A stretch of DNA of 64,000 nt from positions 454 through 64,453 of the forward strand of contig DAOUOW010000002.1 in the NCBI GenBank assembly GCA_030626475.1, read 5' to 3'. Made by a program: the position numbers and the translations under genes. The notes below the pieces were generated by a model. It searched no databases. It was given only the letters and a program-made list of their open reading frames with translations, and was not told the origin of the DNA. Shown here piece by piece: positions 11,207 to 61,590 of the stretch (positions within the stretch are counted from its first letter, which is position 1; each line of letters starts with the position of its first letter). This DNA comes from Chloroflexota bacterium. GTDB taxonomy: Bacteria > Chloroflexota > Dehalococcoidia > E44-bin15.

Positions 11207-11215
11207 CTGAAGCCA

Positions 11216-35739: not shown

Positions 35740-35856
35740 CTTTTTCGACCTATGGCAAGGAATTTTGGCTTAGGTGATTGGCTATCGGCGGCAGCTTTCA
35801 ATTGGAAAGATGATAAACGGAGACAAGAATCCAGATAGCCTTTCATTCACCACAGC

Positions 35857-37335: not shown

Positions 37336-37344
37336 GGCATTCCT

Positions 37345-38298: not shown

Positions 38299-38299
38299 G

Positions 38300-38722: not shown

Positions 38723-38750
38723 TTCCCTCACCTTGTTGTATTGCGTGCGT

Positions 38751-39276: not shown

Positions 39277-40125
39277 ATGGGAAAAGTGAAAAAGATAGGC
39301 TCCAGTAAGAAAGCCTTAGCCGGTCTGGCAACAGCCTTTTTGGTGCTTGTTCTGGTTGTTATCGGTTTCGCAAGCCAAGGGACTGGTGTCAGCCCTGCCT
39401 TGGGCCAGTGGGGCTACGGCTATGGCTATGGCTATGGAGGGGGAGGGGGAGGCTTTGTTGATACTACGGCGCCCGGGATCTCGGATGCATCTATATCGGC
39501 CTCCGCTATCACCGACACCAGTGCCACCATAGCCTGGACCACGAATGAGCCGAGCACGAGCCAGGTGGAATACTGGCCCGGTTCCTTCTCGGCACTGGAT
39601 AGCACCCTGGTCACCAGCCACAGCGTCACTCTGGCCGACTTGACTCCAGGAACTACCTATCACTACACGTGCAGGTCAACCGACGCTGCAGGCAATTTGG
39701 TGGTATCTGATGAGCATACCTTCACCACCTCGGGTGTTTCGCCTGATACCACGCCTCCTGTGATATCAGCGGTATCAGCCTCAGATGTCTCCGACGATAG
39801 GGCGGTCATAGCCTGGACCACGGATGAGCCGAGCACGAGCGAGGTGGAATACTGGGTCACCACCACCTCTCTGTGGTCTCGGGACACAACCCGGGTCACC
39901 AGCCACAGCGTGACTCTGACCGATCTAGACTCAGAGACCACCTATAACTTCAGTGTCAGGTCAAGCGACGCCGCAGGCAACCTGGCCATATCCGACGAGT
40001 ACACCTTCACTACCTCGGCTGCAGTTGCTGCCGCCGCTAACTGGGCGCTCATCGGAGGCATTATAGGTGGTGTGGTGGTTGCTGGCGGGCTAGCGTGGTA
40101 TCTGTGGTGGAGGAGAAGGGGATAG
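39277..40125 (+). CDS. Anchored surface protein with two tandem FN3-like domains
   Basis: N-terminal signal/anchor (LAGLATAFLVLVLVVIGFA), a GYGYGYGYGGGGGG tract and two ~93-aa repeats of the form (A/V)IAWTT(N/D)EPSTS.VEYW...TSHSVTL.DL...TY......DAAGNL..SDE.TFTTS. The C-terminus is the TM helix WALIGGIIGGVVVAGGLAWYLWW followed by RRRG. Confidence 0.8.
   Translation: MGKVKKIGSSKKALAGLATAFLVLVLVVIGFASQGTGVSPALGQWGYGYGYGYGGGGGGFVDTTAPGISDASISASAITDTSATIAWTTNEPSTSQVEYWPGSFSALDSTLVTSHSVTLADLTPGTTYHYTCRSTDAAGNLVVSDEHTFTTSGVSPDTTPPVISAVSASDVSDDRAVIAWTTDEPSTSEVEYWVTTTSLWSRDTTRVTSHSVTLTDLDSETTYNFSVRSSDAAGNLAISDEYTFTTSAAVAAAANWALIGGIIGGVVVAGGLAWYLWWRRRG
39412..39453 (+). repeat. In-frame hexanucleotide (GGCTAY)x4 plus (GGR)x6 microsatellite
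   Basis: ggctac ggctat ggctat ggctat gga ggg gga ggg gga ggc, encoding (GY)4 followed by G6. Confidence 0.85.
39460..40020 (+). repeat. Tandem duplication of the FN3-like module (39460-39744 and 39745-40020)
   Basis: Long near-identical nucleotide runs between the units. For example, catagcctggaccacgAatgagccgagcacgagcCaggtggaatactgg matches catagcctggaccacgGatgagccgagcacgagcGaggtggaatactgg. Confidence 0.85.
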
Positions 40126-40258
40126 TACTTGGGTTAGTGATATACCCGTTAGTTCTGCGCTAATAGAGCTGAGGCAGGGTCTGCGCTCTGCCCCAGCTCG
40201 TTGGCAAATAAAGCCCCTGGCTGTGATCAAAGCATGGAGCAGAATTAAGGTGAGGACA

Positions 40259-41524
40259 ATGCTAGCTAGAGTAAGCCTGATCGGGGAAAGGCTAAAGAGC
40301 GATGAAATGGCTAGGCATGGAAGCATGATGGTCGCTTTTGTATTTCTTGGGGGGCTTTTCGGCTACCTGTACCAGCTCTCCATGGGCAGGATGCTGGCAC
40401 CAGCGGAATATGGAACGCTCATTAGCCTGCTATCCTTGTTCCTGATCATCTCAGTATTCTCCCAGACCATCCAGGCCTCGGTATCCCGATTTACTTCTAA
40501 GTACAGGGTCGATAACAAGTGGGGAAGGATAAACTACCTGTGGAAATACTCCCTAAGACGGACCTTCCTACTGGGAGTGGGGTTGTTTCTCATCTTGTTT
40601 ATGCTCAGCCCCCTGGTTTCAAGGTTTCTCAACATTGATAACAATTGGTATTGGGTCATCTTTGCCTCCTCTTTCCTGTTGGCTTTTATGGTTGCAGTGA
40701 ACTGGGGAATCCTACAGGGGCTGCAGAGATTTTCGCCTTTGGGTTTTAGCACTGCTCTCATGGGGCTATTGAGACTTGGCCTGGGCCTCCTTTTGGTCTA
40801 TCTAGGGATGGGGCTTTACGGCGGCTTGCTCTGCCTCCCCCTTGCCATCGTAGTAGTTCTGGTGGTAACCCACTCCTCACTCAAGGACATGGCCAAGGCA
40901 GGTAATGAGACGGTTGAGATCAGAGGGCTTTTTTCGTATGCCGGGTTAGCCCTCTTGGCTCTGGCTGCTTTTGCTGTGTTAACCAATATGGATGTTATTC
41001 TGGCTAAGCACTTTCTAAGCCCTGAGAGTGCTGGCAATTATTCAGCTATCTCGGTCTTGGGGAGGATAGTCCTCGTCGCCCCCATGGGGATCGCTATGGC
41101 TATGTTTCCCAAGACCTCCGAGCTTTTTGAGACCGGGGGGAGACATCGCCCGGTGCTGGTGAAAGCAACGCTGCTCACCATTCTTCTCGGCGGGGGCGTG
41201 GTACTGGTCTATTGGCTCTTTCCTGATTTCATCATTAATTCCCTCTTCGCCGACGAGTATTCCCTGGTCGCTTCTCACCTCTTTAAGTATGGGCTGGCGA
41301 TGGCATTTTGGGCAATCTCGTTTCTGTTGATGCAATATTTACTGTCATTGAATCGAACCAGAGTAGCCTATTCCCTGCTCGGGGCTATGGTGCTTCAGGT
41401 GGGTCTAATAATCGGTTTTCACTCCAGCATTGGCCAGATCGTTGATATCATGCTTATCTCCAGCATAGTCTGCTTGGCCCTGGTGTGCCCCTTCTATTTC
41501 AATGTGAGAAGGAGACATTTATGA
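40259..41524 (+). CDS. MOP/Wzx-family polysaccharide flippase
   Basis: About 12-14 predicted TM helices with a typical Wzx-length polytopic pattern. I chose the ATG at 40259 (after AAGGTGAGGA) rather than the start at 40223. Confidence 0.75.
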   Translation: MLARVSLIGERLKSDEMARHGSMMVAFVFLGGLFGYLYQLSMGRMLAPAEYGTLISLLSLFLIISVFSQTIQASVSRFTSKYRVDNKWGRINYLWKYSLRRTFLLGVGLFLILFMLSPLVSRFLNIDNNWYWVIFASSFLLAFMVAVNWGILQGLQRFSPLGFSTALMGLLRLGLGLLLVYLGMGLYGGLLCLPLAIVVVLVVTHSSLKDMAKAGNETVEIRGLFSYAGLALLALAAFAVLTNMDVILAKHFLSPESAGNYSAISVLGRIVLVAPMGIAMAMFPKTSELFETGGRHRPVLVKATLLTILLGGGVVLVYWLFPDFIINSLFADEYSLVASHLFKYGLAMAFWAISFLLMQYLLSLNRTRVAYSLLGAMVLQVGLIIGFHSSIGQIVDIMLISSIVCLALVCPFYFNVRRRHL

Positions 41525-42087
41525 ACAGGGCTGTTTTCATAGATCGGGATGGGACGATCGCAAAGGATGTCCCTTATTGCAGTCGTCCTCAGGATTTTCA
41601 ACTATTGCCCCGGGCTGGCAATGGGATAAGGCTATTGAACAACAACGGGTTCAAGGTGCTCATGATCACCAATCAATCCGGGGTCGCTCGGGGTTATTTT
41701 ACCCGGGAAATGCTGGGCAGAATCCACCGCAAGATGAGGAGAGATCTAGCTGAGTATGGGGCTCATATTGATGCCATCTATTATTGCCCCCATTACCCCG
41801 ATGAGCACTGCGATTGCAGAAAGCCAAAGCCAGCGTTGGTCTATCGGGCGGCAAGGAAGCATGACATCGAATTGAGCAAATCCTTCTTCATTGGGGATCA
41901 ATGGCATGATGTGGAGGCGGGGCATTCTGCTGGCTGTAGGACGTGTTTGGTCTCGCCCAATGGCACACCAGAAACACCGCCAAGCCGGAATAATATGCCA
42001 GAGCTGGACTTTGTCGCCCGCGATTTCCTGGAAGCTTGCACATGGATTCTAAAACTCATAGTACCTGAAGTAGTTAGGGGGAAGTGA
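41521..42087 (+). CDS. gmhB: D-glycero-D-manno-heptose 1,7-bisphosphate phosphatase (HAD-IIIA)
   Basis: FIDRDGTI, ITNQSGVARGYF, the Zn-loop CPHYPDEHCDCRKPKP and FIGDQWHDVEAG. The ATG overlaps the flippase stop (ATGA). Confidence 0.85.
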   Translation: MNRAVFIDRDGTIAKDVPYCSRPQDFQLLPRAGNGIRLLNNNGFKVLMITNQSGVARGYFTREMLGRIHRKMRRDLAEYGAHIDAIYYCPHYPDEHCDCRKPKPALVYRAARKHDIELSKSFFIGDQWHDVEAGHSAGCRTCLVSPNGTPETPPSRNNMPELDFVARDFLEACTWILKLIVPEVVRGK

Positions 42088-43205
42088 TGCTGAAAGTGCT
42101 TGTTTTTGGTGGGGCTGGTTTTATCGGCTCTCACACTGTTGATTTACTTCTAAACAAAGGGTACGAAGTTAGGATTCTCGATTCGCTCGAGTCGCCGGTG
42201 CATCAGGATGGCGCCATTCCTTCATATATCCCGAAGGAGGTTGAGTTTATCTCCGCAGATGTTCGAGACCGCCAGGCGGTAGCGCGAGCGCTGGAGGGCG
42301 TAGATATCGTATTCCAACTTGCCGCATACCAGGATTACCTCCCCGACTTCAGCAAGTTCTTCCATGTCAACTCAGTTGGCACTGCGCTCATTTATGAGCT
42401 CATCGTGGAGAAGAGATACAAGGTGCAAAAGGTGATCTTGGGCAGCTCGCAGGCAGTCTACGGTGAGGGGAAGTATAAATGTCCGTTTCATGGCATTCAA
42501 TATCCTGGGCAAAGGCCGATGGCTCAATTACTTGAACGCGATTGGGAGTTCAGGTGTTCGGTTTGCGGCGGAGAAATGTCTCTCCTGCCCACGGATGAGG
42601 CGGTGGTGAATCCTCACAACCCCTATGCCATAAGCAAGTATAGCCAGGAGATGATCGCCCTCAATCTGGGAAAGCGCTATGGAATACCAACTGTGTGCTT
42701 ACGCTACAGCATTACCCAGGGCCCTCGCCAGAGCTTCAGCAATGCTTATAGCGGTATCTGCCGTAACTTCACCACCCGGCTGTTAACCAATAAGCGCCCT
42801 ATCGTATATGAAGATGGGAAGCAATTACGAGATTATGTCTATGTGGCAGATGTAGCGTTGGCAAATATATTGGCGCTGGAAGAGCCTAGAGCGGATTATG
42901 AAGTATTCAATGTCGGTGGGGACAATATCATTAGCGTTTTGGAATACGCTTATTTGATTGCCGAGAAGATGGGTAAAAGTATCGAGCCCCTGGTCCCAGG
43001 AGCATTCCGCTTTGGTGATACGCGGCACGTTGTTTCAGACGCAGGCCGAATCCAGACCCTGGGTTGGAAAGCGACAACGCCTCTGGAGAAGATCGTGGAG
43101 GATTACATCGCCTGGGTCAGTGAGCAACCAGATATAAAGGACTATTATGCCGAAGCAGAGAAGGTGATGGAACGAGTGGGGATCATCGTGAAGGTCCCCA
43201 AATAA
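42087..43205 (+). CDS. NAD-dependent sugar epimerase/dehydratase (extended SDR) with a Cys/His insertion
   Basis: GGAGFIGSH and a YxxxK motif (PYAISKY). A ~40-aa insert, KCPFHG...RCSVCGG, lies between them. Confidence 0.8.
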   Translation: MLKVLVFGGAGFIGSHTVDLLLNKGYEVRILDSLESPVHQDGAIPSYIPKEVEFISADVRDRQAVARALEGVDIVFQLAAYQDYLPDFSKFFHVNSVGTALIYELIVEKRYKVQKVILGSSQAVYGEGKYKCPFHGIQYPGQRPMAQLLERDWEFRCSVCGGEMSLLPTDEAVVNPHNPYAISKYSQEMIALNLGKRYGIPTVCLRYSITQGPRQSFSNAYSGICRNFTTRLLTNKRPIVYEDGKQLRDYVYVADVALANILALEEPRADYEVFNVGGDNIISVLEYAYLIAEKMGKSIEPLVPGAFRFGDTRHVVSDAGRIQTLGWKATTPLEKIVEDYIAWVSEQPDIKDYYAEAEKVMERVGIIVKVPK

Positions 43206-43220
43206 GGTGGGGGGGTCACT

Positions 43221-44204
43221 ATGATAATAACCCAGACCCCGCTGAGGATAAGCTTTGTTGGCGGTGGCACCGATTTGCCCTCCTTCTACCGCCTTGAGGG
43301 CGGCGCTGTGGTTAGCACCACCATCGATAAATATGTTTATGTCATAGCCAAGGAAAGGTTTGATGACCAGATTCGAGTGGGTTACACCCAGACCGAGATC
43401 ACGGGCTCTATCGATGAAGTCAAGCATGACCTGGTGCGCGAGGCATTGCGAAAGACAGGGGTCAATGATGGTCTGGAGATTGTCACTGTTGGTGATATCC
43501 CATCTGAGGGCACAGGGCTTGGCTCGTCAAGCTCGGTAACCGTCGGTCTTTTAAATGCCCTCTATCAGTATCGGGGAGAGCCCAAGGAGCCAAGGACGCT
43601 AGCTGAGCTGGCTTGTGACATCGAAATCAAAGTCCTGGGCAAGCCCATTGGCAAGCAGGACCAGTATATTGCCGCCCTGGGGGGATTGAGGAAAACCGTG
43701 TTTCATCCTGATGAGGAGGTATCAAGCGAGCCGATTAATATCCCTGAAAAAACGCTCCGCGCCCTCAGCCGCAGCCTGCTCCTGTTCTACACCGGCGTCA
43801 CCCGTAGTGCTGACCCCATCCTCAAAGAGCAGCAGGCAAATACCTCCCGCAGGATGGAAACGCTGCGTCGGATGAAGGAGATGGCAAATGAACTGGAGCA
43901 GGAGCTGATAAACGGAAATATCGAAGCACTGGGCGAGATGCTGCATCGCGGCTGGTGTTATAAGAGGGAACTTGCCAGCGGTATCACCAACCCTACTATA
44001 GACGAGGTTTATGAGGCGGCACGCAGAGGAGGGGCGATGGGAGGCAAAATCACCGGCGCCGGAGGTGGGGGATTCCTGCTCCTCTATGCTCCGGTCGATC
44101 TTCAAGAGAGGGTGAGGAGAGCCATTGATGGGCTTCGCGAAGTGCCCTTCAGCCTGGAGCGGGATGGAACCAAGACATTGCTCAATGCTCGACGGCCAGT
44201 GTAG
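43221..44204 (+). CDS. hddA: GHMP-family kinase, D-glycero-alpha-D-manno-heptose 7-phosphate kinase-like
   Basis: The N-terminus MIITQTPLRISFVGGGTDLPSFY is characteristic of HddA-type kinases. The GHMP motif is PSEGTGLGSSSSVTVG. It is flanked by gmhB and gmhA. Confidence 0.75.
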   Translation: MIITQTPLRISFVGGGTDLPSFYRLEGGAVVSTTIDKYVYVIAKERFDDQIRVGYTQTEITGSIDEVKHDLVREALRKTGVNDGLEIVTVGDIPSEGTGLGSSSSVTVGLLNALYQYRGEPKEPRTLAELACDIEIKVLGKPIGKQDQYIAALGGLRKTVFHPDEEVSSEPINIPEKTLRALSRSLLLFYTGVTRSADPILKEQQANTSRRMETLRRMKEMANELEQELINGNIEALGEMLHRGWCYKRELASGITNPTIDEVYEAARRGGAMGGKITGAGGGGFLLLYAPVDLQERVRRAIDGLREVPFSLERDGTKTLLNARRPV

Positions 44205-44219
44205 GGGTTAGGAGGGGAG

Positions 44220-44840
44220 ATGAACAGTTTCATAGGGTATATCGACCATGTCGCTGTTCTCCTCGGAGAGCTTAAGCGGCAGGAGGGGATTGTGCTCCAG
44301 CTTGTGGATGAAATAGTGAGCAGAGCCACTCAGAGCAAGCAGGTTATTGTCTTCGGCAATGGGGGCAGCGCCGCCACTGCTAGCCACTTCGTCTGCGACA
44401 TAGCTAAAGGAACCATCACCCCAGGCTGTCCCAGGGTAAGGGCACTTTGCCTAACTGATAATACCTCATTAGTTACCGCCTGGGCCAACGATGAGTCCTA
44501 TGATTCCATCTTCGCTGAGCAGCTCAAGGGCTGCCTTGATCACGATGACCTTGTGGTGGCGATAAGTGGCAGCGGGAACTCTCCCAATGTGCTCCGGGCG
44601 GTTGAAGCGGCAAAGGAGGGCGGAGCTACCTGTTTCGGCCTATGTGGCTTTGATGGCGGGCAGCTTGCCCGACTGGCTCACTATGCCGTTGTCATCCCGG
44701 CGGAGAATATCCAGCAAGTGGAAGATATCCACCTTCTTATCCTTCACTCGGTCTCCCTTTTGGTTAAGGAGAGACTTGAGGAGTGGCAGAAGGCGAAGGT
44801 CTTGGTCATGGCTTCTGTAAATAGCAGAGGGAGAAGATGA
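44220..44840 (+). CDS. gmhA: Sedoheptulose-7-phosphate isomerase (SIS domain)
   Basis: VFGNGGSAATASHFVCD...VVAISGSGNSPNVLRAVEAAKEGG...EDIHLLILH. Confidence 0.85.
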   Translation: MNSFIGYIDHVAVLLGELKRQEGIVLQLVDEIVSRATQSKQVIVFGNGGSAATASHFVCDIAKGTITPGCPRVRALCLTDNTSLVTAWANDESYDSIFAEQLKGCLDHDDLVVAISGSGNSPNVLRAVEAAKEGGATCFGLCGFDGGQLARLAHYAVVIPAENIQQVEDIHLLILHSVSLLVKERLEEWQKAKVLVMASVNSRGRR

Positions 44841-45577
44841 AGTCGCGGGGAAAGGTTCTGATCGCCGTTCCAACCTATAACGAGGCAGATGTTATCGAAG
44901 ATAACATCAAAAGGCTGAGAGAGTTCTTGATCTCAAATCTGGATCATGACTATGAGATCGTGGTCGCCGATAATGCCTCTGCCGATAACACCGTTGCCAA
45001 GGTGATGACGCTGTCTGAAACATATAGCGAGGTCAAATGGATCCACTTAGACCAGAAAGGGAAAGGTGGCGCGATAAAGAAGGTTTGGTCTGAGAATGAT
45101 GCTGATATAGTCGTCCTGGTAGATGCTGATCTATCGCCAGATGTGAGTGCCTTTCCCCAATTAATCGCCGCCCTTGACGATGGCTATGATGTCGCTATCG
45201 GCTCCCGTTTCTTGAAGGGAAGTCAGGTGAAAAGGTCTTTCAAGCGCACGTTCCTGTCAAGGGGTTACAATCTTTTGCTCCGGCTTTTGTTCCGAGCACG
45301 GTTTTCAGATGCGCAATGTGGATTTAAGGCGATGAAGAAGAGAGCATTTTTGGAGCTTTTGCCTGCGATCAAGAACAATGAATGGTTTTTTGATACCGAG
45401 TTACTGATACGCTCCCAGAGGAGGGGGTTAAAGATTAAAGAGATACCCATTAACTGGGTGGAGCGCAGGGAAAGCAAAGAACAGCCACTGAAGGCGGTGT
45501 TCAATTATATCGTGCTCCTGCGCAGATTATACTTTGAGTTCAGGTTAAACGATCACCATGAAGGTGCTGGTAATTAG
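44837..45577 (+). CDS. GT2 glycosyltransferase, Dpm1/GtrB/CsbB-like polyprenyl-phosphate sugar synthase
   Basis: VLIAVPTYNEADVI, ADNASADNT, VLVDADLS and DAQCGFKAM. 246 aa, soluble-type. Confidence 0.8.
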   Translation: MKSRGKVLIAVPTYNEADVIEDNIKRLREFLISNLDHDYEIVVADNASADNTVAKVMTLSETYSEVKWIHLDQKGKGGAIKKVWSENDADIVVLVDADLSPDVSAFPQLIAALDDGYDVAIGSRFLKGSQVKRSFKRTFLSRGYNLLLRLLFRARFSDAQCGFKAMKKRAFLELLPAIKNNEWFFDTELLIRSQRRGLKIKEIPINWVERRESKEQPLKAVFNYIVLLRRLYFEFRLNDHHEGAGN

Positions 45578-47904: not shown

Positions 47905-47935
47905 AAGGGAAGTCACTCGATAGGGGAGGGTCTTT

Positions 47936-49177: not shown

Positions 49178-49179
49178 AT

Positions 49180-49860: not shown

Positions 49861-49898
49861 TGTTCACAACATTGACGATATTACAAGGGGAGTGGAGC

Positions 49899-50933: not shown

Positions 50934-51044
50934 GAGCAGAGCTGTGAAATCTGGGATATATTGCAAATTACCTTTCAACCAGGGTGATCTGAAAGTTCGT
51001 GCTTGTGGAACGCTGGAAAAGAAATAGATTAGAGGCCAGCCAAA

Positions 51045-56020: not shown

Positions 56021-56035
56021 TCCTGGGGGTGCGAT

Positions 56036-56329
56036 ATGTCTGTTATAGGGGTGATAGTCTTGGCCGCCTTCGCCATATGTACCATCCTTTTTGCCCTCCT
56101 GCGACTCGATTCGAGGATAATCGCAGGCTCAGTCCTGGTCCTGCTGGTTGTCACGGTGATAGCCGTCGCCATGGGGTGGGAGGATGTGGCACAGGGAGTG
56201 GTACTGTATGCCTATGGCTTACTGATCTCGGCAGTGGTTGTCCTGACAGTCGAATATCTCAGGGGGGAGCCAGAAAAGCGCGTAGAGGGGAGACGCGAGC
56301 AGACTCAAGGGGAGCCCGATCATAAATAA
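56036..56329 (+). CDS. Small membrane protein (about 3 TM helices)
   Basis: 97 aa: hydrophobic helices followed by a charged tail, EPEKRVEGRREQTQGEPDHK. Confidence 0.5.
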   Translation: MSVIGVIVLAAFAICTILFALLRLDSRIIAGSVLVLLVVTVIAVAMGWEDVAQGVVLYAYGLLISAVVVLTVEYLRGEPEKRVEGRREQTQGEPDHK

Positions 56330-56343
56330 AGGAGGTAGAAACA

Positions 56344-57396
56344 ATGAAGGTTTTGATAACAGGAGGCTGTGGGTTTATAGGTTCTCACGTCTGTGAATAT
56401 TACATCGAAAAGGGGGCTGACGTTATCGCCTATGACAATATGACGAAACATGAACTTACGCGCACAGGTTATGCCGCAGATGCTGCCCGGGATTATAATT
56501 GGCAGTTCTTAAAGAAATTGGGAGTTACCCTGATTAATGGGGATGTGCGCGATTTCGATGCGCTGGTCAAAGCTGCCAAGGGTTGTGATTTCATAATTCA
56601 TACCGCAGCCCAGCCAGCTATGACCATCAGCATGGAATCGCCGGGTCTTGATTTCTCAACCAATGTTCTGGGCGGCTTTAATGTCTTGGAGGCGGCAAGA
56701 AAGTTGGAAATACCTGTGGTTAACTGTGCCACCATTCATGTCTATGGAAATAGAATCAATGAGACCCTTGGCGAGGAAGATACCAGATATACCCGTAGCC
56801 CGGTAGCGATTGATGAAAATCATCCCACGGTAGAAGGGACACTTACCCCATTACATGCCTCCAAGAGGGCTGTTGACCTCTATGTGCAAGCTTATATAGA
56901 CACTTATGGGCTACAAGCGGCGAGCTTCCGTCTCACGGGTCTCTATGGAACCCGCCAATTTGGTGGGGAAGACCACGGTTGGGTTGCTAATTTCGTTATT
57001 CGGGCTATCGCAGGGTTGCCGATCACGATTTACGGCACAGGGAAGCAGTTGAGGGATATTTTATATGCCTCTGACGTTGCCCGAGCATTTGACGCCTTCT
57101 ATAAAACAAGGAAGCCAGGCATCTACAACATCGGGGGAGGAGTAGAGCATGCTATTTCCCTTTTGGAATGCATTGAGCTGATAAGGGAGATAACAGGGCA
57201 GGAGCTGGTAGTCAAACATGGTCCCCCTCGGTTGGGAGACCTGCTCTACTTTGTCTGTGATATCGCCAAAGCGAAGCGGGAATTGGGATGGGAGCCCAAA
57301 GTCTCGAATAGGGAAGGCGTATCCCGCTTAATCGAATGGGTGAAAGAGAATGAGGCCATTTTCCGCAGAGCCTCAACTTCGGCGTCTGTGGGGTAG
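56344..57396 (+). CDS. NAD-dependent sugar epimerase (CDP-paratose/tyvelose 2-epimerase-like SDR)
   Basis: MKVLITGGCGFIGSH, IIHTAAQPAMTISMESP and a pre-YxxxK region. The overall N-terminal pattern resembles RfbE-type epimerases. Confidence 0.75.
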   Translation: MKVLITGGCGFIGSHVCEYYIEKGADVIAYDNMTKHELTRTGYAADAARDYNWQFLKKLGVTLINGDVRDFDALVKAAKGCDFIIHTAAQPAMTISMESPGLDFSTNVLGGFNVLEAARKLEIPVVNCATIHVYGNRINETLGEEDTRYTRSPVAIDENHPTVEGTLTPLHASKRAVDLYVQAYIDTYGLQAASFRLTGLYGTRQFGGEDHGWVANFVIRAIAGLPITIYGTGKQLRDILYASDVARAFDAFYKTRKPGIYNIGGGVEHAISLLECIELIREITGQELVVKHGPPRLGDLLYFVCDIAKAKRELGWEPKVSNREGVSRLIEWVKENEAIFRRASTSASVG

Positions 57397-57407
57397 GAGA
57401 ATTAAGC

Positions 57408-58184
57408 ATGAACCGGATCAGGCTCGGGATCATCCCAGCGGCAGGAAAGGCGACAAGGATGGGCTATCTGGGCCAGATTCTGCCCAAATGCCTCTTCCCT
57501 GTCTATGACAAGCCAATCATTCATCATGTTCTGGAGACCATGAGGACGGTTGGCGTGGAACAGGTCTATGTGATTGTAAATTATCACAAGGACAAAATAA
57601 TGGAGTACCTGGGGCAGTTGGAGCACGAAATCGGCGTCGGCATAGAATTTGTAATTCAACCAAGGCTTTCAGGGATAGCCGACGCCATAATGCTGACCAG
57701 CAAGTTCATCGAAGAACCGTTCATGGTGATACTGGGAGACGACTGCACCATGACCCGATCCCTGGCCAGCATCACTCGCTCTTTCTTTGAGCATGATGCT
57801 GTCGTTGTTGAGGGGGTGGTTAGGGAGGATAACATAGACATACTAAGGTCCACCTGCTGCCTGAGGTTGGACAAGGATAAGCGGATCGTGAACATCGAGG
57901 AGAAGCCCCAGGAGCCGCTCTCAAATTTGAGGGGGTGCGGCATTTATGCTTTCCACAGCGACATCTTCAAATATATCGAGAAGACCCCGCCCTCACTGCT
58001 GAGAAAAGAATCCGAGATTACAGAGGCTATCGCCCTGGTGGCCAAGGATGGGAAGGCCTACGGCGAGTTTATCAACGGGGTAAACATCAACATCAATTCC
58101 TATGAAGACCTCCTCCAGGCCTCCCTGCTGGCGAAGAAATTCAGGCTCGGTGTTGTTGAAGACCTGACAGTGAAGGTGGGGTAG
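57408..58184 (+). CDS. Sugar-phosphate nucleotidyltransferase (candidate heptose-1-phosphate guanylyltransferase, HddC-like)
   Basis: GIIPAAGKATRMG (G-x-G-T-R-x signature) and LGDD. The HddC role is assigned by context with gmhA, hddA and gmhB. Confidence 0.75.
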   Translation: MNRIRLGIIPAAGKATRMGYLGQILPKCLFPVYDKPIIHHVLETMRTVGVEQVYVIVNYHKDKIMEYLGQLEHEIGVGIEFVIQPRLSGIADAIMLTSKFIEEPFMVILGDDCTMTRSLASITRSFFEHDAVVVEGVVREDNIDILRSTCCLRLDKDKRIVNIEEKPQEPLSNLRGCGIYAFHSDIFKYIEKTPPSLLRKESEITEAIALVAKDGKAYGEFINGVNININSYEDLLQASLLAKKFRLGVVEDLTVKVG

Positions 58185-58185
58185 G

Positions 58186-59487
58186 GTGAAAATCTGCTAT
58201 GCCACAGATCATCTGCCGGGTTATCATCGCATCTGGGGTGGCGCGGAGCAGGCGTGCTACAGACTGGCTAAACTTTTGACCAGGAATGGTCATGAGCTGG
58301 CTGTGCTGTCAACAAAGCCACTAAAGAAGCCTGAAGAGGACTTCGATTTCTTCCAGATACCGGTGTTTGAAGACCTTCTCCCCCAAAGGGCACGTTACCT
58401 CATAAGACAGATAAAGACCGCCTTTATCCCCTACGACCCCATCTCCCATATCTTCTGCCACCGGCTTCTGAAGCGGATTAAGCCCGATGTTCTGCACCTG
58501 CATAACTTCTATTCCCTATCTCTGGCGCTAGTTTGGAGCGCCCACAGGTTGGGGATCCCGATGGTATGCTCTATCTATGATTATGGGGCTATCTGCCCCA
58601 TGGGGCATTTGTGGCTGCTGAAGGATTACGCCACCTATGAAGGAACCCCTTGCCGAAAATTCCACGGCCCTCACTGCTTCGATTGTCTCAGTTCATACCG
58701 CAAACCGGGGCCTTTTCTCAGGTTCCTCCTCTTCCCTCTCTTATCTTTGAGAAAAAGGGTCTATGACTTCTTCCTTAGGAGGATTGATTGTTTTGCTGTT
58801 TTATCGCCATCCAACGCCACGGTTCTAATGGAGTATGGCATTGAAGAGGAGAAGACCTTCGTTATCCCGATACCGCTATCAGATAAGATCGAGGCTCAGC
58901 CTGTCGAACAGGACTCCATCCTTTATGTGGGGTGGATTCAGCCAAGGAAGGGGCCGCACATTGTTGTCGAGGCCATGCCTCAGATATTGAACCGGATACC
59001 CAATGCTAAGCTATATCTCATCGGGGAGCAAAGGTCAAACAAAGAGTACCAAAGAAGGATGGCAGCCTTGCTAAACCGGCAGGGGTTAGAGGGGCATGTC
59101 TTCCTCCTTGGGCGTAGACCCTATCACGAGGTGAGGGATTTTATGCAAAAAGCTAACGTGGTGGTGATACCAGAACAATGGGAAACCATTCCCCCCAATG
59201 CGCTAACCGAGAGTCTGGTTTTGGGCAAGGCATTGGTGGCATCGAGAATAGGGGGCGTCCTCGATTTCATCAGGGACGGCGAGAATGGTCTCATGGCTGG
59301 CGCCAGTGAGCCAGCCGATTTCGCCGAAAAAATAGTTTCCATATTGGAAGATGAGGCTTTGATGGAGAGATTATGTAAAGGGGCGGCGGCGACAGGGCAC
59401 GACCTCTTTTCTGAAGATAGTGTTTATCGCCGATTATTGAATCTTTATCACTCGGTTCAAGGGGCCAAGAATCCGGCACACATGTAG
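58186..59487 (+). CDS. GT4 (GT-B) glycosyltransferase with a Cys/His-rich insertion
   Basis: C-terminal GT-B motifs (VVIPEQWETIPPNALTESLVLGKALVASRIGG...GENGLM). The insert is CPMGH...CRKFHGPHCFDC. Confidence 0.8.
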   Translation: MKICYATDHLPGYHRIWGGAEQACYRLAKLLTRNGHELAVLSTKPLKKPEEDFDFFQIPVFEDLLPQRARYLIRQIKTAFIPYDPISHIFCHRLLKRIKPDVLHLHNFYSLSLALVWSAHRLGIPMVCSIYDYGAICPMGHLWLLKDYATYEGTPCRKFHGPHCFDCLSSYRKPGPFLRFLLFPLLSLRKRVYDFFLRRIDCFAVLSPSNATVLMEYGIEEEKTFVIPIPLSDKIEAQPVEQDSILYVGWIQPRKGPHIVVEAMPQILNRIPNAKLYLIGEQRSNKEYQRRMAALLNRQGLEGHVFLLGRRPYHEVRDFMQKANVVVIPEQWETIPPNALTESLVLGKALVASRIGGVLDFIRDGENGLMAGASEPADFAEKIVSILEDEALMERLCKGAAATGHDLFSEDSVYRRLLNLYHSVQGAKNPAHM

Positions 59488-59496
59488 AGAGAGGAC

Positions 59497-61590
59497 ATGG
59501 AAAGGGTGAGATGGGGCTGGGTCCCGTATTTAGTTTATTCCTTGCTTTCCCTTTCTATTCTAGGGACTCTGCTTTCGCCGGGCTACATCTTAACCCTGGA
59601 TATGGTCTTCACCCCGCATTTTGACTCCTCCTCTTTTCTCTATGGGCTGGACGAGTGGTGGCCATCAGCCTCAGCTCCTTTCTTTCTCCTGCTGCAGTTC
59701 GGGAGCAAGATTGTTCCTGCCTGGGTGATCGAAAAAGCTATCCTATTTTTGGTTTTCTTCCTCGCCGGGCTGGGGGCGCACCGGCTTTTCCCCTATAGAG
59801 GGGTGGGGGCATACTTCGCTGGTCTGCTGTATATGATAAATCCCTTTACCTACGCTCGCTTCCTGGCAGGACACTGGGGGATGCTCACAGCTTACGCCAT
59901 GTTCCCCTTTGCCATTAAGGCATTTATCGAGTTGCTGGAGAGGCGAGAGAGGAAGGATGCGATAAGAGTGGCGCTGTTTTCAACACTGGTGGGACTCATC
60001 CAGGTTCATGCGTTCTTCATGCTTTTCTTCGCCTTTGGCATCATCTTTGTGGTCAGGGCGATAGCCAAGCGCAGGGAGCCAGCAGTGCTCCACCACGCCT
60101 CTAAATACATGGGGATAAGCGCAGCAATATTCCTCGCTCTCAACCTTTACTGGCTGGTTCCCTATCTCACTGCCAGCGGGACGGTGATGGGAGAGATCGG
60201 CCAAGAAGACCTTCTTTTCTTTGCCCCCAAGGCTACTTCCGATTTTGGGGTGGGCTTCGATGTCGCCTCCATGCACGGGTTCTGGAGAGAAGGCTATCTA
60301 TATACCAAAGACATCCTGTCTTTTTGGTGGCTGATCTTCGTCGTTATGCTCTTTCTTGCAACTTATGGATTTTTGGTCAAATATCGGCATCAGAGATTGG
60401 GGTGGGTGGTGGTGTCCTTTGCTGTGCTGGGGGTGGTTAGCTACCTTCTGGCACTGGGAGCAGCGAGCAATCTCACCCGTCCTCCCTTTGAGTGGGCTTA
60501 CCAGCATGTACCATTATTTCGTGGATTCAGAGATTCGCAGAAATTTGTCGCTTTACTCTGTCTCGCCTATGCTTTCCTAGGTGGCTTGGGGGTGAGGGAG
60601 ATCATCAAGCCTTTAAGGCGACTTAAACGGAAACTGCCCGTGGCAGGGATGATGACGCTGGCGATTATGCTGCTCTTGAGCCCGATCGCCTACTCCTTCT
60701 CCATCTTCGGCTTTCAGGGGCAGCTGGGAACCACAGATTATCCCCAGGAGTGGTATGAGGTGAATGAATACCTGAATCAGGACGATGAAGATTTTCAGGT
60801 TTTATTTTTGCCCTGGCATCTCTATATGGACTTTAGCTGGCTACCGAACAGGGATAAGAGGCTGGGGAACCCGGCATGGCAATTCTTTGATAAGCCAGTT
60901 ATCGCAGGCGATAATATCGAGATTACCGATGTCTATTCTCAGAGTACATATCCCATGAGCGCATATGTGGAGTTTGTGCTGGCCAACAGAGACGATATAG
61001 AAAACCTGGGCGAGCTACTGGCCCCGCTCAATGTGAAGTACATCATTCTGGCACATGAGGTGGACTATGAGGCCTATAATTCCCTCTATCAGCAGGCAGA
61101 TTTAGCTGTGGAACTGGAAAGACAGGGCATAACTTTGTTCAAGAACCTCCACCCCAGGGCTAAGATCTATGGTGTTAATAGCATTGTTCATATCGACAAC
61201 CTGGAGCAGTACCTGGAGCTGAGCAAAACTCAGGACGTGATGGAACATATTTACCTGCTGGGGAGTGGCAGTAGTAGCGGTGAGGCTTCCGCAATGGAAG
61301 TCGTGGGGTTTGAAAAGGAGAGCGCGGTCAAATACCATGTTCAGGGCAGTGAGAGCGAATACCTGGTGTTCACTGTCTCCCATAGAGCGAGCACTGAGCA
61401 CTGGGAGTATGAGGGCCAGCAGGCGATGAAGAACCTGGGATTCATGCCCGCCTTTGAGTCCGAGAGCGATGGTGGTGAGCTGGTGTACACTAGGTTTTAC
61501 CTTGTCCATCTCACGTGCTACATTATCTCTCTGGTAACCCTGGCAGCGGTGGCAGGGGTCTATTTCTTGCCCAAGACTAAAAGACAATGA
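59497..61590 (+). CDS. Polytopic GT-C-like glycosyltransferase candidate (YfhO-like), paralogue of 51734..56020
   Basis: 697 aa. It has ~13 TM helices with an acidic first loop (LTLDMVFTPHFD), a soluble C-terminal domain and a terminal TM helix. Confidence 0.7.
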   Translation: MERVRWGWVPYLVYSLLSLSILGTLLSPGYILTLDMVFTPHFDSSSFLYGLDEWWPSASAPFFLLLQFGSKIVPAWVIEKAILFLVFFLAGLGAHRLFPYRGVGAYFAGLLYMINPFTYARFLAGHWGMLTAYAMFPFAIKAFIELLERRERKDAIRVALFSTLVGLIQVHAFFMLFFAFGIIFVVRAIAKRREPAVLHHASKYMGISAAIFLALNLYWLVPYLTASGTVMGEIGQEDLLFFAPKATSDFGVGFDVASMHGFWREGYLYTKDILSFWWLIFVVMLFLATYGFLVKYRHQRLGWVVVSFAVLGVVSYLLALGAASNLTRPPFEWAYQHVPLFRGFRDSQKFVALLCLAYAFLGGLGVREIIKPLRRLKRKLPVAGMMTLAIMLLLSPIAYSFSIFGFQGQLGTTDYPQEWYEVNEYLNQDDEDFQVLFLPWHLYMDFSWLPNRDKRLGNPAWQFFDKPVIAGDNIEITDVYSQSTYPMSAYVEFVLANRDDIENLGELLAPLNVKYIILAHEVDYEAYNSLYQQADLAVELERQGITLFKNLHPRAKIYGVNSIVHIDNLEQYLELSKTQDVMEHIYLLGSGSSSGEASAMEVVGFEKESAVKYHVQGSESEYLVFTVSHRASTEHWEYEGQQAMKNLGFMPAFESESDGGELVYTRFYLVHLTCYIISLVTLAAVAGVYFLPKTKRQ

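Follow-up and report, generated by a model that had tools for sequence, protein, structure and literature searches.

The locus at positions 39277 to 61590 of the window analysed here, a 64,000-nucleotide stretch of contig DAOUOW010000002.1 from a Chloroflexota bacterium, raises the question of which glycan its genes assemble and by what kind of machinery. A first-pass annotation had described it as a one-strand cluster of 21 genes, of which the strand and the coordinates hold, the ORF calls giving 19 plus-strand genes (g1 to g19) that tile about 22 kb in an operon-like manner; the count of 21 is wrong, since no gap is big enough for an extra gene. Most intergenic distances are of 1 to 31 nt and two are longer (97 and 111 nt), and the overlapping stop and start codons reported for several genes are present at seven gene pairs (g2/g3, g3/g4, g6/g7, g7/g8, g8/g9, g11/g12 and g13/g14), as ATGA/GTGA-type or longer overlaps. 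Every ORF except g15 has a Pfam or structural assignment fitting glycan biosynthesis. The cluster sequence is present only in DNA metagenomes, and its gene order recurs, far above chance, in the independent metagenome contigs L003, L004 and L085. It is a genuine gene cluster for a cell-surface glycan, from an uncultured Dehalococcoidia bacterium of the subsurface, and its genes are as follows.

g1, 39277..40125, plus strand: secreted FN3 protein of 282 aa (Pfam fn3 and Pur_ac_phosph_N matches, TM scan)
g2, 40223..41524, plus strand: MOP-superfamily (Wzx-type) lipid-linked glycan flippase (Pfam, TM scan)
g3, 41485..42087, plus strand: GmhB-type heptose 1,7-bisphosphate 7-phosphatase, HAD-IIIA (NCBIfam)
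g4, 42084..43205, plus strand: NAD-dependent sugar epimerase/reductase, extended SDR (Pfam Epimerase, GDP_Man_Dehyd)
g5, 43221..44204, plus strand: HddA/WcbL-type GHMP kinase, D-glycero-D-manno-heptose 7-phosphate kinase (PDB, NCBIfam)
g6, 44220..44840, plus strand: GmhA-type sedoheptulose 7-phosphate isomerase, SIS domain (Pfam SIS_2, NCBIfam)
g7, 44837..45577, plus strand: soluble GT2 of 246 aa, polyprenyl-phosphate glycosyltransferase type, DPMS/ArnC/GtrB/AglJ-like (PDB, NCBIfam)
g8, 45558..46685, plus strand: GT4 glycosyltransferase (Pfam Glycos_transf_1, 135 bits)
g9, 46585..47904, plus strand: GDP-sugar 4,6-dehydratase/4-reductase-family SDR (Pfam, PDB)
g10, 47936..49177, plus strand: radical SAM enzyme with SPASM domain (Pfam Radical_SAM, SPASM)
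g11, 49180..49860, plus strand: class I SAM-dependent methyltransferase (Pfam Methyltransf_11, Methyltransf_25)
g12, 49845..50933, plus strand: GT2 glycosyltransferase (Pfam Glycos_transf_2, 89.5 bits)
g13, 51045..51737, plus strand: class I SAM-dependent methyltransferase, MetW-like (Pfam Methyltransf_11, MetW)
g14, 51734..56020, plus strand: GT-C glycosyltransferase of 1428 aa, AftD-like architecture (AF2, Foldseek, hhalign)
g15, 56036..56329, plus strand: membrane protein of 97 aa with three hydrophobic segments (TM scan)
g16, 56344..57396, plus strand: RmlB-like NDP-hexose 4,6-dehydratase, SDR (NCBIfam, Pfam Epimerase)
g17, 57408..58184, plus strand: sugar-1-phosphate nucleotidylyltransferase, RmlA/AglF-like (PDB, NCBIfam)
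g18, 58186..59487, plus strand: GT4 glycosyltransferase (Pfam Glycos_transf_1, Glyco_transf_4)
g19, 59497..61590, plus strand: GT-C glycosyltransferase of 697 aa, MmpA/AftD-N-terminal type (AF2, Foldseek, Pfam, NCBIfam)

The two large membrane proteins, g14 and g19, had been proposed to be GT-C paralogues, and the Foldseek comparison with the GT-C families finds the GT-C fold in both, their AF2 models matching AftD best and oligosaccharyltransferases next. Their paralogy is seen by BLASTP (E 2e-21) and by hhalign (probability 100%, E 1.4e-41), and a loop-1 Asp together with an FR(D/E)xxK motif is kept in both. More precisely, g19 has about 11 TM helices and a periplasmic domain that joins alpha/beta to beta-sandwich, and it ends in a further TM helix; its model (pLDDT 89.6, pTM 0.88) retrieves AftD 6w98 first (E 5e-11), followed by AglB, STT3, PglB, AftA, DPY19 and ArnT. 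It exceeds the cutoff of Pfam GT-C_AftD (29.1 bits, cutoff 26) and is nearest to MmpA by sequence, its score on the NCBIfam MmpA family being 199.9 bits, under the cutoff of 210. Residue D35 is found in all 43 sequences compared, R345 and K349 are invariant across four phylum-level groups, and the family counts 5,951 representative relatives among 1.84 billion proteins.

In g14, about 9-10 TM helices at the N-terminus and then a periplasmic alpha/beta domain come before two CBM11-like modules and other beta-sandwiches; the C-terminal domain is conserved, and a single TM helix ends the protein. The duplication of beta-sandwich modules noticed earlier in this 1428-aa protein is real, residues 738-888 and 1027-1177 being 56% identical. 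The AF2 model of residues 1-1200 is of moderate confidence (pLDDT 65 overall), with the TM and CBM1 domains well predicted and the second repeat poorly so; its top Foldseek match is again AftD 6w98 (E 5.7e-15, 1199 columns), and the CBM11 structures 1v0a and 6r3m are also retrieved (TMt 0.62-0.64). D43 is invariant in the 14 sequences compared and FR(E/D) is conserved. AftD itself requires K39, D41, E251, K361 and D474, and in AftD, EmbC and GT136 alike the CBMs serve to bind a glycan acceptor. Since the family sequence profiles reach no solved GT-C, the link of g14 and g19 to AftD rests on predicted structure, the 29-bit Pfam match and the MmpA model; on these models, the two proteins are distant relatives of mycobacterial AftD and MmpA. 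The earlier view that no described system matches this combination was overstated, the nearest being these mycobacterial proteins and three-component GT-C systems.

A conserved core made of a g8-type GT4, a g12-type GT2, a methyltransferase, an AftD-like GT-C, an MmpA-like GT-C and a Wzx recurs in Dehalococcoidia, in Methanoperedens and other archaea, in Saccharimonadia and in Actinomycetota, and parallels the mycobacterial aftD–mmpA–GT–mtrP locus. The core machinery, studied so far in mycobacteria alone, also exists in archaea and candidate-phyla bacteria. With partner frequencies counted over 60 related loci and synteny viewed over a 10-kb flank, a g8-like GT4 is found in 32 loci (5/5 Actinomycetota, 11/16 CPR, 9/18 archaeal) and, across phyla, no other partner accompanies the g19-type GT-C as persistently. 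In other lineages, g12 homologues usually lie directly downstream of the g8-type GT4, such adjoining pairs being present in L006, L020 and eight further loci, mostly CPR (L052, L056, L058, L064, L067, L068, L071 and L074). A methyltransferase directly precedes a GT-C in L003, L004, L006, L007, L020 and L080, and the core order is shared by the archaeal Methanoperedens locus L020, which reads GT2-GT4-GT2-GT1-GT4-MT-GT-C-x-GT-C with Wzx alongside.

The cytoplasmic steps would be carried out by g7, g8, g12 and g18. The top PDB match of g7 is the P. furiosus Dol-P-Man synthase 5mlz (E 2e-23, residues 6-231), followed by ArnC and GtrB, so that the Dpm1/CsbB-like GT2 announced for this cluster is present; its best solved relatives are all polyprenyl-phosphate glycosyltransferases, and no TM segment appears in its TM scan. 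From these sequence matches, g7 is a candidate maker of a lipid-phosphate-sugar donor or primer. Two moderately hydrophobic C-terminal helices (residues 289-307 and 321-339) are seen in g12. The predicted flippase is also there, g2 being of the MOP/Wzx type by Pfam (Polysacc_synt 48.4 bits, cutoff 28.2, and also Polysacc_synt_3), with about 11 TM segments (11 hydrophobic segments in the scan); its homologues adjoin those of g19 in Dehalococcoidia, Methanoperedens, Aenigmatarchaeota and CPR. As for g15, its Pfam and NCBIfam searches gave no family match beyond a sub-threshold YhhN, and no flippase family. The equivalent place in L003, L004 and L002 is taken by two homologues, of 97 and 123 aa with 46-47% identity, and by an ORF of 93 aa. 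The giant GT-C always precedes the g15-type gene, which may encode a subunit or a small lipid-sugar flippase.

Regarding the sugar donors, the cluster had been credited with a complete GDP-heptose route. The GmhA, HddA-type kinase and GmhB steps are well supported: g6 scores 102-110 bits on the NCBIfam phosphoheptose isomerase models (under their equivalog cutoffs), the best PDB sequence matches of g5 are the heptose kinases 3k85, 4usm/4usk and 4n3o (E 1.6e-45 to 3.6e-34, the top match spanning the full length; NCBIfam HddA 152.8 bits, under the equivalog cutoff of 600), and g3 reaches 143.9 bits on TIGR01656, over its cutoff, and 172.9 bits on NF006506 (cutoff 178). The likely true start of g3 is the ATG at 41521, overlapping the g2 stop. 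For the HddC step, g17 is the sole candidate in the cluster, and a weak one by sequence, being nearer to RmlA/AglF (PDB: RmlA E 5e-21 versus HddC 5xhw/6jq8 E 2e-8 to 4e-8; NCBIfam: archaeal GlmU-type 134 bits, AglF 129, HddC 48) and adjoining the RmlB-like g16, itself matching dTDP-glucose 4,6-dehydratase TIGR01181 over its full length with 160.6 bits, under the cutoff. Because this assignment is weak, the route is not demonstrably complete. Besides, g9, whose true start is likely at 46669, scores 240.8 bits on Pfam GDP_Man_Dehyd and matches GDP-6-deoxy-4-hexulose reductase 2pk3 (E 2e-44), GDP-mannose dehydratases and GDP-D-glycero-D-manno-heptose 4,6-dehydratase 7us5 (E 5e-34) in the PDB, and g4 has an insertion of some 45 aa rich in Cys and His (KCPFH...CSVCGG), each of its two Pfam matches being split into two stretches. 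The radical SAM enzyme g10 is conserved in L003 (64% identical), L004 and L085, and in L004 the g6 homologue adjoins a transaldolase-like gene. Heptose genes were found in 0 of the 60 related loci; they are strain-specific variable cargo, outside the conserved system.

The envelope of the class Dehalococcoidia is often wall-less and S-layered. Folds, paralogy, conserved residues of catalytic type, gene content and synteny across phyla are what the analysis shows; we infer donors, an acceptor, an order of steps and a product for g2-g19, which would make up a cell-surface glycan locus that moves horizontally, varies between strains and combines variable sugar cargo with conserved machinery. The products of g3-g6, g9 and g4 would yield GDP-linked D-glycero-D-manno-heptose, probably then dehydrated or reduced to a deoxy-heptose, those of g16-g17 an NDP-6-deoxyhexose, and those of g11, g13 and g10 O-methyl or other modifications. 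In the cytoplasm, polyprenyl phosphate would carry a short glycan while g7, g8, g12 and g18 build it, and g7, of the Dpm1/AglJ type, would either prime it or make polyprenyl-P-monosaccharide donors. The Wzx-type g2, possibly helped by g15, would flip this lipid-linked glycan so that it faces outwards. Outside the membrane, g19 and g14 would extend, branch or attach the glycan from lipid-phosphate-linked sugars, the CBM11-like modules of g14 probably holding a polymeric glycan acceptor as in AftD and EmbC. The product would be a surface heteropolysaccharide or glycoconjugate. This two-layer model as a whole is the reading that we favour, with moderate confidence; the two-route scheme of the first-pass annotation, a putative one in which a heptose oligosaccharide is flipped and the GT-C pair decorates outside the membrane, is plausible.

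A non-canonical protein glycosylation, likened to the Dol-P-based Agl pathway of haloarchaea, has a modest chance of being the right explanation. The glycan would be built on polyprenyl phosphate, flipped by Wzx and moved en bloc by an OST-like g19 onto envelope proteins (S-layer or g1), and g14 would then decorate the protein-bound glycan. The oligosaccharyltransferases AglB, STT3 and PglB in the second tier of g19 matches speak for it, as do AglJ as the best NCBIfam match of g7 (70.6 bits, under the cutoff), the fusion of the g7 type to a g8-type GT4 in L003 and L085, a hint that the role of g7 is to prime an oligosaccharide and not to supply a monosaccharide donor, and the frequency of the g19 family in S-layered archaea and Dehalococcoidia. 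However, AftD is clearly a better match of g19 than the OSTs (TMq 0.55 versus about 0.40), a motif search found WWDxG in neither GT-C, and the CBMs of g14 make a glycan acceptor more likely than a peptide one.

In the same line, g1 had been called the obvious substrate. Besides its two FN3 (Pur_ac_phosph_N-like) domains, it has a signal/TM segment, a linker rich in GY/G and a C-terminal TM anchor with an RRRG tail, and its sequence holds one N-x-S/T sequon. Its Ser and Thr content of 27% would fit that role, and so would its orthologues at the locus head: those of L084 (70% identical) and L085 (74%) immediately adjoin Wzx on its upstream side, and that of L086 (70%) lies upstream of a 62-residue Wzx fragment. 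Nevertheless, the gene has the GC content of the flanks (57.7%), keeps its position in L084 and L086 where most glycan genes are deleted, and was found in 0 of the 60 distant related loci, so that g1 is a conserved neighbour at the locus head and not a demonstrated substrate.

Compared with the favoured surface-glycan model, an ordinary Wzx-dependent exopolysaccharide or capsule would dispense with polyprenyl-P-monosaccharide donors, the GT-C-like pair replacing Wzy and the ligase or export partner, and the priming PGT being encoded elsewhere. A Wzx, four cytoplasmic glycosyltransferases and nucleotide-sugar genes are indeed present, Wzx and the g19 type are direct neighbours in many genomes, and low GC with variable content is typical of O-antigen or capsule loci. 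In the profile scan, neither the cluster ORFs nor the 30 larger flanking ORFs of the window matched a Wzy, WaaL, LCP or phosphoglycosyltransferase family, and none is recorded among the called genes of L001-L004, which also speaks for the favoured model; with no Wzy or ligase, some protein must therefore polymerise or attach the glycan on this reading. It is nonetheless unlikely, given that Foldseek returned monosaccharide-transferring GT-Cs and OSTs instead of Wzy-type polymerases or WaaL-type ligases, that the cluster holds the Dpm1/ArnC/GtrB-type g7, and that the priming PGT is missing from the window and from L001-L004.

To our knowledge, no mycolates are made by these organisms, which counts against g19 being a non-enzymatic, MmpA-like scaffold or lipid-delivery factor that assists a transporter or g14 in carrying a glycolipid through or out of the membrane. 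This last explanation, drawn from the score of g19 on the NCBIfam "MmpA family trehalose lipid delivery protein" and from the MmpA paper, in which the Corynebacterineae protein has a transport phenotype and no recognisable catalytic domains and a transport or scaffold role is proposed, is very improbable, since bacterial and archaeal members alike keep the loop-1 Asp, R345 and K349, a pattern that active GT-Cs should show, and since a 2026 preprint notes that MmpA, by Foldseek, may be a glycosyltransferase.

Finally, the locus behaves as an island, because its GC content is low (49.9% for g2-g19 versus 55.7% for the flanks) and close relatives carry deletion derivatives of it (L084, L086), in which fragments of g18 survive. 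Upstream of g1 lies a further feature.

38835..39041, plus strand: remnant of a DedA/VTT-domain membrane protein gene, C-terminal 65 codons (tblastn)

The VTT protein of L084 aligns with the window at 59% identity over its residues 106-170 (tblastn, E 3e-18), and the gene is intact at the equivalent position in the relatives L084 and L086.

The run of glycan genes proposed in the first-pass annotation is real and occupies positions 39277-61590 of the window, although it consists of 19 genes (g1-g19) instead of the 21 that had been counted. This stretch is tiled by 19 ORFs of at least 80 aa, all on the plus strand, with stop and start codons overlapping at seven junctions and intergenic gaps of 1-31 nt, the exceptions being g1/g2 (97 nt) and g12/g13 (111 nt); since every gap is too small for a further gene, the count stays at 19. 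The flanks of the cluster are ordinary bacterial chromosome, with a bacterial-type AspRS carrying a GAD domain, HypF/D/E, HycI, and a NiFe hydrogenase upstream, and Sir2 and a solute-binding protein downstream. In terms of GC content, g2-g19 are at 49.9%, the upstream flank at 55.7%, and g1 at 57.7%. The organism is placed in the Dehalococcoidia/Chloroflexota by the homologues and the loci carrying them, and the cluster sequence was found in DNA metagenome runs only, from subsurface, marine sediment, and vent sites, and in none of the RNA runs. The genes were assigned with Pfam, NCBIfam, and searches against solved structures, as listed below.

Genes of the cluster (window 39277-61590, all plus strand), in order, with internal coordinates where recorded
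g1: secreted, C-terminally anchored protein with two FN3 domains
g2: MOP/Wzx flippase (48.4 bits with Pfam Polysacc_synt, whose cutoff is 28.2)
g3: GmhB (172.9 bits, just under the cutoff of 178)
g4, 42084-43205: SDR with a Cys/His insertion
g5: HddA/WcbL-type heptose kinase of the GHMP type (E 1.6e-45 over its full length against solved heptose kinases)
g6: GmhA-like SIS isomerase (GmhA models at 102-110 bits, under the equivalog cutoffs)
g7: GT2 of 246 aa (closest solved structures: Dol-P-Man synthase, E 2e-23, ArnC, and GtrB)
g8: GT4
g9: SDR of the GDP-sugar 4,6-dehydratase/reductase family (relatives include the GDP-heptose dehydratase 7us5)
g10, 47936-49177: radical SAM/SPASM protein
g11: SAM methyltransferase
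g12: GT2 with two hydrophobic helices at the C-terminus
g13: SAM methyltransferase
g14: large membrane GT-C protein of 1428 aa
g15: 97-aa protein with three TM segments
g16: RmlB-like dehydratase
g17: nucleotidyltransferase, the sole one in the cluster
g18: GT4
g19: large membrane GT-C protein of 697 aa

The central feature of the cluster is the pair of large membrane proteins, g14 and g19, both of which have a GT-C fold according to their predicted structures. The lack of such a fold, named in the first-pass annotation as an observation that would speak against its reading, was not seen: Foldseek searches with the two models both return AftD, the arabinofuranosyltransferase D of Mycobacteriales (PDB 6W98), as the best structural match. 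The AlphaFold2 model of g19, built on a 59-sequence alignment, reaches a pLDDT of 89.6 and a pTM of 0.88, and aligns with AftD over 662 columns (E 5e-11, TMq 0.55), the next ranks among PDB entries being occupied by AglB, STT3, PglB, AftA, DPY19, and ArnT. For g14, only residues 1-1200 of 1428 were modelled, which leaves the second copy of the CBM and the conserved C-terminal domain poorly modelled or outside the model; the pLDDT of this model is a moderate 65, with the membrane domain, the first CBM, and the next beta-sandwich being predicted well, and the match to AftD extends over 1199 columns (E 5.7e-15). The repeated module of g14 is found at residues 738-888 and 1027-1177, the two copies being 56% identical; it matches CBM11 structures (TMt 0.62-0.64), and CBM_11, at threshold on this module, is the sole Pfam match of the protein. 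Pfam thus gives no GT-C match for g14, whose tie to the fold at the sequence level goes through the g19 family, the hhalign probability between the two family profiles being 100% (E 1.4e-41). The two proteins are paralogous across approximately 600 residues (BLASTP 26% identity, E 2e-21), and g19 itself matches the Pfam family GT-C_AftD (PF11847) with 29.1 bits against a cutoff of 26, over residues 371-556 only. Both show nine or ten hydrophobic segments, seen as helices in the g19 model too, followed by a large soluble region, and g14 ends with a single hydrophobic segment at residues 1362-1380.

Residues of catalytic type are conserved in both families. Directly after TM1, an Asp is found in 43 of 43 g19-type sequences from Chloroflexota, archaea, CPR, and Actinomycetota (D35 in g19) and in 14 of 14 g14-type sequences (D43 in g14), a place that would put it in the first extracytoplasmic loop (EL1). 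Furthermore, an FR(D/E)xxK motif is kept in both proteins, R345 and K349 being invariant in g19. In AftD, K39, D41, E251, K361, and D474 are essential, and the acidic residue of loop 1 and a basic residue near 350-380 parallel D41 and K361 by position, unaligned. Single-sequence searches of PDB chains with g14 and g19 produced no meaningful match, and neither the narrow family profile (A1) nor the one built from four phylum-level groups (A4) matched PDB sequences, AftD included; because the profiles do not reach the AftD sequence, these parallels are positional ones.

The likeness of g14 to AftD extends to its overall plan: in approximately 1400 aa, a GT-C membrane domain at the N-terminus is followed by a periplasmic GT-C domain and by several CBM/beta-sandwich modules before the chain returns to the membrane. 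However, sequence likeness is barely detectable, with 12-15% identity in the structural alignment, and whereas AftD ends in TM12 and a four-helix bundle binding the acyl carrier protein, g14 ends in one TM helix. Moreover, the AftD pathway uses decaprenyl-phospho-arabinose (DPA), the genes for which are missing from the cluster (no DprE or UbiA-type gene in a Pfam scan), a Dpm1-type GT2 being present instead. g14 is not AftD proper, since it has neither the bundle binding the acyl carrier protein nor the DPA pathway. To our knowledge, the Chloroflexota host has no arabinogalactan.

The smaller protein, g19, is closer to MmpA (NCgl2761/Rv0226c), a corynebacterial and mycobacterial membrane protein partly homologous to the N-terminal part of AftD. 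It matches the NCBIfam MmpA model (NF053599) with 199.9 bits over residues 12-520, under the cutoff of 210, and all g19-family members tested match this model along almost its entire length at 134-200 bits (134-181 for the relatives), compared to 28 bits for the g14 type. In Mycobacteriales, the tmaT locus contains aftD, mmpA, the predicted glycosyltransferase Cgp_3166 (Rv0225), and the methyltransferase mtrP, and, by protein class, the same company of MmpA-like and AftD-like proteins, SAM methyltransferase, and predicted glycosyltransferase is seen here as in tmaT-mmpA-mtrP-aftD. In Actinomycetota beyond Mycobacteriales, a g8-like GT4 adjoins the g19-type gene in all five loci. Yet the MmpA and CPR-type forms, of approximately 540 aa, lack the additional beta-domain and TM helix found at the C-terminus of g19, and the Pfam scan of the cluster revealed no acyltransferase such as the TmaT acetyltransferase, no MmpL/CmpL-type transporter, and no mycolate pathway. 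Neither its score against the curated cutoff nor its locus context classifies g19 as MmpA. In the loci of Saccharimonadia and other CPR (L044-L079), the g19-type protein has the length of MmpA (approximately 540-555 aa), without the C-terminal beta-domain and the last TM, and approximately 5 kb upstream of its gene there is usually a g8-like GT4 with a g12-like GT2 as the next gene downstream of that GT4.

The g19 family is large, counting 5,951 representatives (E <= 1e-3) in a set of 1.84 billion cluster representatives. In species-representative genomes, it is found in bacteria (Dehalococcoidia, Saccharimonadia and other CPR, Acidimicrobiales and other Actinomycetota) and in archaea (Methanoperedens, Hecatellales, Aenigmatarchaeota, Micrarchaeota, Hadarchaeota, Thermoplasmata). 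Three close metagenome relatives (L003, L004, and L085) show the gene order of the window, including the heptose genes and the radical SAM gene, the succession of methyltransferase, giant GT-C, and small protein, and that of SDR, NTP-transferase, GT4, and GT-C. In two of them, the homologues of g7 and g8 form a single fused gene of 621 aa (L003:3274-5139 and L085:6978-8843), which suggests that both act on the same lipid-linked intermediate, and the third (L004) has an additional transaldolase-like gene adjoining GmhA and GmhB. Among 60 loci in which the g19-type GT-C is flanked by 8 kb or more, the following partners were counted.

g8-like GT4: 32/60 loci, including 5/5 in Actinomycetota
g12-like GT2: 16/60 loci
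second, g14-like GT-C: 15/60 loci
Wzx: 14/60 loci
g13-like methyltransferase: 10/60 loci

Heptose genes were found in none (0/60) of these more distant loci with the same GT-C. A locus of Methanoperedens (L020) illustrates the archaeal arrangement, with the order GT2-GT4-GT2-GT1-GT4-MT-GT-C (693 aa)-x-GT-C (705 aa) and a Wzx gene alongside on the opposite strand. The machinery is kept across domains and the sugars are its cargo, which mirrors the tmaT locus of Mycobacteriales. A 1369-aa homologue of the giant GT-C (P0125), 48% identical over 95% of g14, is filed under a Heimdallarchaeota MAG, reflecting either cross-domain transfer or a binning error.

The cargo of the cluster itself appears to be a modified heptose. 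The genes of GmhB, HddA, and GmhA type (g3, g5, and g6) cluster together, three of the four GDP-heptose steps are well supported as predictions, and the GDP-heptose synthesis that the first-pass annotation had called complete holds for this part. Its fourth step, HddC, is weak: g17 finds its best matches in RmlA (E 5e-21), AglF, and archaeal GlmU-type proteins, HddC being far weaker (E 2e-8), and it scores 48 bits with the HddC model, whose cutoff is 300. As g17 is RmlA-like, the guanylyltransferase step is not clearly encoded and completeness is not demonstrable, although high-identity orthologues of g17 co-occur with the heptose genes in L003 and L004 and a role of g17 as HddC is possible. 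In comparison with the GDP-D-glycero-alpha-D-manno-heptose and 6-deoxy-heptose pathways of the Aneurinibacillus S-layer glycan and of the capsules and O-antigens of Campylobacter, Burkholderia, and Yersinia, the GmhA-like, HddA/WcbL-like, and GmhB-like proteins and the SDR related to 7us5 are all present, whereas a clear gene for the guanylyltransferase step is not, and all equivalog cutoffs are missed.

Two further genes of unusual character accompany this cassette. In g4, a Cys/His-rich insertion of approximately 45 aa (KCPFH...CSVCGG) interrupts the Epimerase domain, which Pfam therefore matches in two pieces; the whole gene has an orthologue in the decayed relative L086 (82% identical) and relatives of approximately 38% identity in the related loci L007 and L066. 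The radical SAM/SPASM protein of g10 type is a conserved member of the glycan cluster (L003:6591-9032; L004:6381-9037). In L003, a gene for a DUF362 Fe-S protein adjoins the radical SAM/SPASM gene, and in L004, it adjoins a B12-binding radical SAM enzyme, the radical SAM/SPASM gene being approximately 7 kb away; both the DUF362 gene and the B12-binding radical SAM partner are absent from the glycan cluster of the window.

Taken together, the cluster combines two paralogous proteins of predicted GT-C fold with conserved catalytic-type residues, a GT2 of Dpm1/ArnC/GtrB type, a Wzx flippase, four cytoplasmic glycosyltransferases, and nucleotide-sugar genes. A short glycan would be built on polyprenyl phosphate in the cytoplasm, where g7 could prime it, as argued from the GT2-GT4 fusion, and the lipid-linked glycan would then be flipped by the Wzx protein g2. 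Outside the membrane, g19 and the CBM-bearing g14 would extend, branch, or attach this glycan with lipid-phosphate sugars, the CBMs of g14 possibly holding a polymeric acceptor, as in AftD and EmbC. The DPMS/ArnC/GtrB-like GT2 of the cluster is the only pointer to a polyprenyl-phosphate sugar donor for g14 and g19. As a whole, this mechanism of assembly, flipping, and external transfer is read from the genes and is considered reasonably probable; by analogy, it comes near to the two-route model of the first-pass annotation, whose interpretation is supported in part, and to the logic of arabinogalactan and LAM synthesis in mycobacteria.

The cluster would work like known GT-C-dependent extracytoplasmic glycosylation. 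With the three-component systems (GtrA/GtrB/Gtr-type, CsbB/GtcA/YfhO, ArnC/ArnEF/ArnT, and the GT136 pentofuranose system), it shares a polyprenyl-phosphate GT2 (g7, whose seven best solved relatives are DPMS, ArnC, and GtrB proteins, E 2e-23 to 6e-8) and GT-C proteins, and a CBM on the GT-C is also known from the GT136 protein ORF12; a small multi-TM protein, g15, lies beside the GT-C. In contrast to the GT2 of these systems, g7 lacks a membrane anchor and, in relatives, forms one protein with a GT4, and the GT-C proteins are two of AftD/MmpA type instead of YfhO, ArnT, or Gtr type, are associated with Wzx, and seem to be part of the core, not an accessory. Although g15 is conserved beside the giant GT-C, Pfam and NCBIfam searches gave no GtrA or SMR match, and a role as GtrA-type flippase finds no support in these family searches. 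Of the three features that define a Gtr-type system, two are recognised in the cluster, namely the GT2 (g7) and the GT-C proteins (g14 and g19).

Among the other readings, protein glycosylation en bloc by an oligosaccharyltransferase-like enzyme comes first. In its favor, haloarchaeal Agl N-glycosylation (AglJ, AglR, AglS, AglB) likewise combines an AglJ-like GT2, soluble glycosyltransferases, a Wzx-like flippase comparable to AglR, and an external GT-C; the g19 family is abundant in archaea, and the best NCBIfam match of g7 is AglJ, with 70.6 bits, far under the cutoff of 325. Nevertheless, the host is a bacterium, and the WWDxG signature of AglB-type oligosaccharyltransferases is absent, no WWD.G match being found in g14 or g19. 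Given this absence and a structural likeness below that to AftD, the two proteins are not AglB/PglB-type oligosaccharyltransferases, and the en-bloc reading is regarded as unlikely. A conventional Wzx pathway, in which the GT-C proteins take the place of polymerase and ligase, is somewhat less likely again. The Wzx protein g2 is present and yet the cluster is not a Wzx/Wzy system: all cluster ORFs and the 30 larger flanking ORFs were without match to Wzy, a chain-length regulator, a priming phosphoglycosyltransferase, WaaL, or LCP families, and none of these families is recorded among the called genes of L001-L004, although Wzy, a chain-length regulator, and a priming phosphoglycosyltransferase could be encoded elsewhere in the genome. 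Finally, that g19 would be a non-catalytic, MmpA-like scaffold is very improbable, the MmpA match being accompanied by the invariant D35, R345, and K349.

Behind the proposed assembly, flipping, and external transfer stands an uncharacterised AftD/MmpA-type GT-C pair that recurs across domains with conserved GT4, GT2, methyltransferase, and Wzx partners, here with a modified-heptose cassette. In a broader and rather doubtful reading, the MmpA-like and AftD-like GT-C proteins with the g8-type GT4, the g12-type GT2, the methyltransferase, and Wzx would represent an ancient envelope-glycan machine common to archaea, Dehalococcoidia, CPR, and Actinomycetota, of which the essential mycobacterial aftD-mmpA-GT-mtrP set would be a specialised descendant. 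If so, wall-less, S-layered hosts would need neither Wzy, WaaL, or LCP nor an AglB/PglB-type oligosaccharyltransferase to build or attach their main surface glycan, and the ancestral, possibly present, role of MmpA would be glycosyl transfer and not the delivery of trehalose lipids. AftD/MmpA-type GT-C proteins are essential in Mycobacteriales, the sole group where they have been studied, and the literature on DUF6541, DUF3367, DUF6311, and S-layer glycosylation in Dehalococcoides yielded nothing on the family outside Mycobacteriales. The locus offers a mycolate-free comparative frame for MmpA-type function, in a family of approximately 6,000 representative clusters, for which Methanoperedens enrichment cultures and heterologous expression are tractable systems, and it hints at a possible route to surface glycans, in wall-less Dehalococcoidia and many archaea, that needs no canonical polymerase, ligase, or oligosaccharyltransferase. 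We know of no non-mycobacterial carrier (archaea, Chloroflexota, CPR, or these Actinomycetota) that makes mycolates or arabinogalactan. Should the locus prove ordinary, it would simply add a modified-heptose example to the known variable surface-polysaccharide loci.

The anchored FN3 protein g1, which heads the cluster, had been put forward as the obvious candidate substrate of the glycan. No mechanistic link to the glycan was found, and g1 is a conserved neighbor with flank-like GC. Full-length orthologues of 70-99% identity exist, and they head the locus in three relatives (L084, L085, and L086), L085 having FN3 and the full cluster; by tblastn, no homologue was found in the 83 loci L001-L083, whose 10-kb flanks seldom reach the cluster head. 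L084 occupies the same chromosomal site, between hydrogenase and Sir2, where all that remains is FN3, Wzx, 43 residues of the g18 GT4, and a g19 orthologue (L084:10001-14784). In L086 (L086:10001-15265), FN3, GmhB, and the g4 SDR remain, Wzx is down to 62 residues and g18 to a fragment, and g19 is split. Internal deletions thus erode the locus, with FN3 and g19 persisting. A 90-aa ORF between Wzx and GT-C in L084, considered as a g15 homologue, overlaps the g18 GT4 remnant instead. At window 38835-39041, the last 65 codons of a gene for a DedA/VTT-domain membrane protein remain (59% identical), and this gene is intact in L084 and L086, between the hydrogenase and the FN3 gene. DedA-family proteins have been linked to polyprenyl-phosphate recycling.

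Elsewhere in the window, positions 30513-38731 encode a [NiFe] hydrogenase resembling Mvh/Vhu, with the large subunit at 35857-37335 and the small subunit at 37345-38298, both on the minus strand, accompanied by the maturation genes HypF, HypD, HypE, and HycI; the ORF at 38300-38731 (minus strand) has an orthologue in L084 that is FlpD-like. A tyrosine integrase (9982-11160) borders tRNA-Ser(cga) (11216-11302) on its upstream side and is preceded by approximately 6 kb of ORFs without Pfam matches and by a weakly DnaN-like ORF (5410-6588), and the region 3315-11302 may be an integrated mobile element. Finally, a PAS-GAF-GGDEF-HD-GYP signaling protein (1266-3269) and a B12-binding radical SAM enzyme (11424-12752) are encoded, both unrelated to the glycan cluster.
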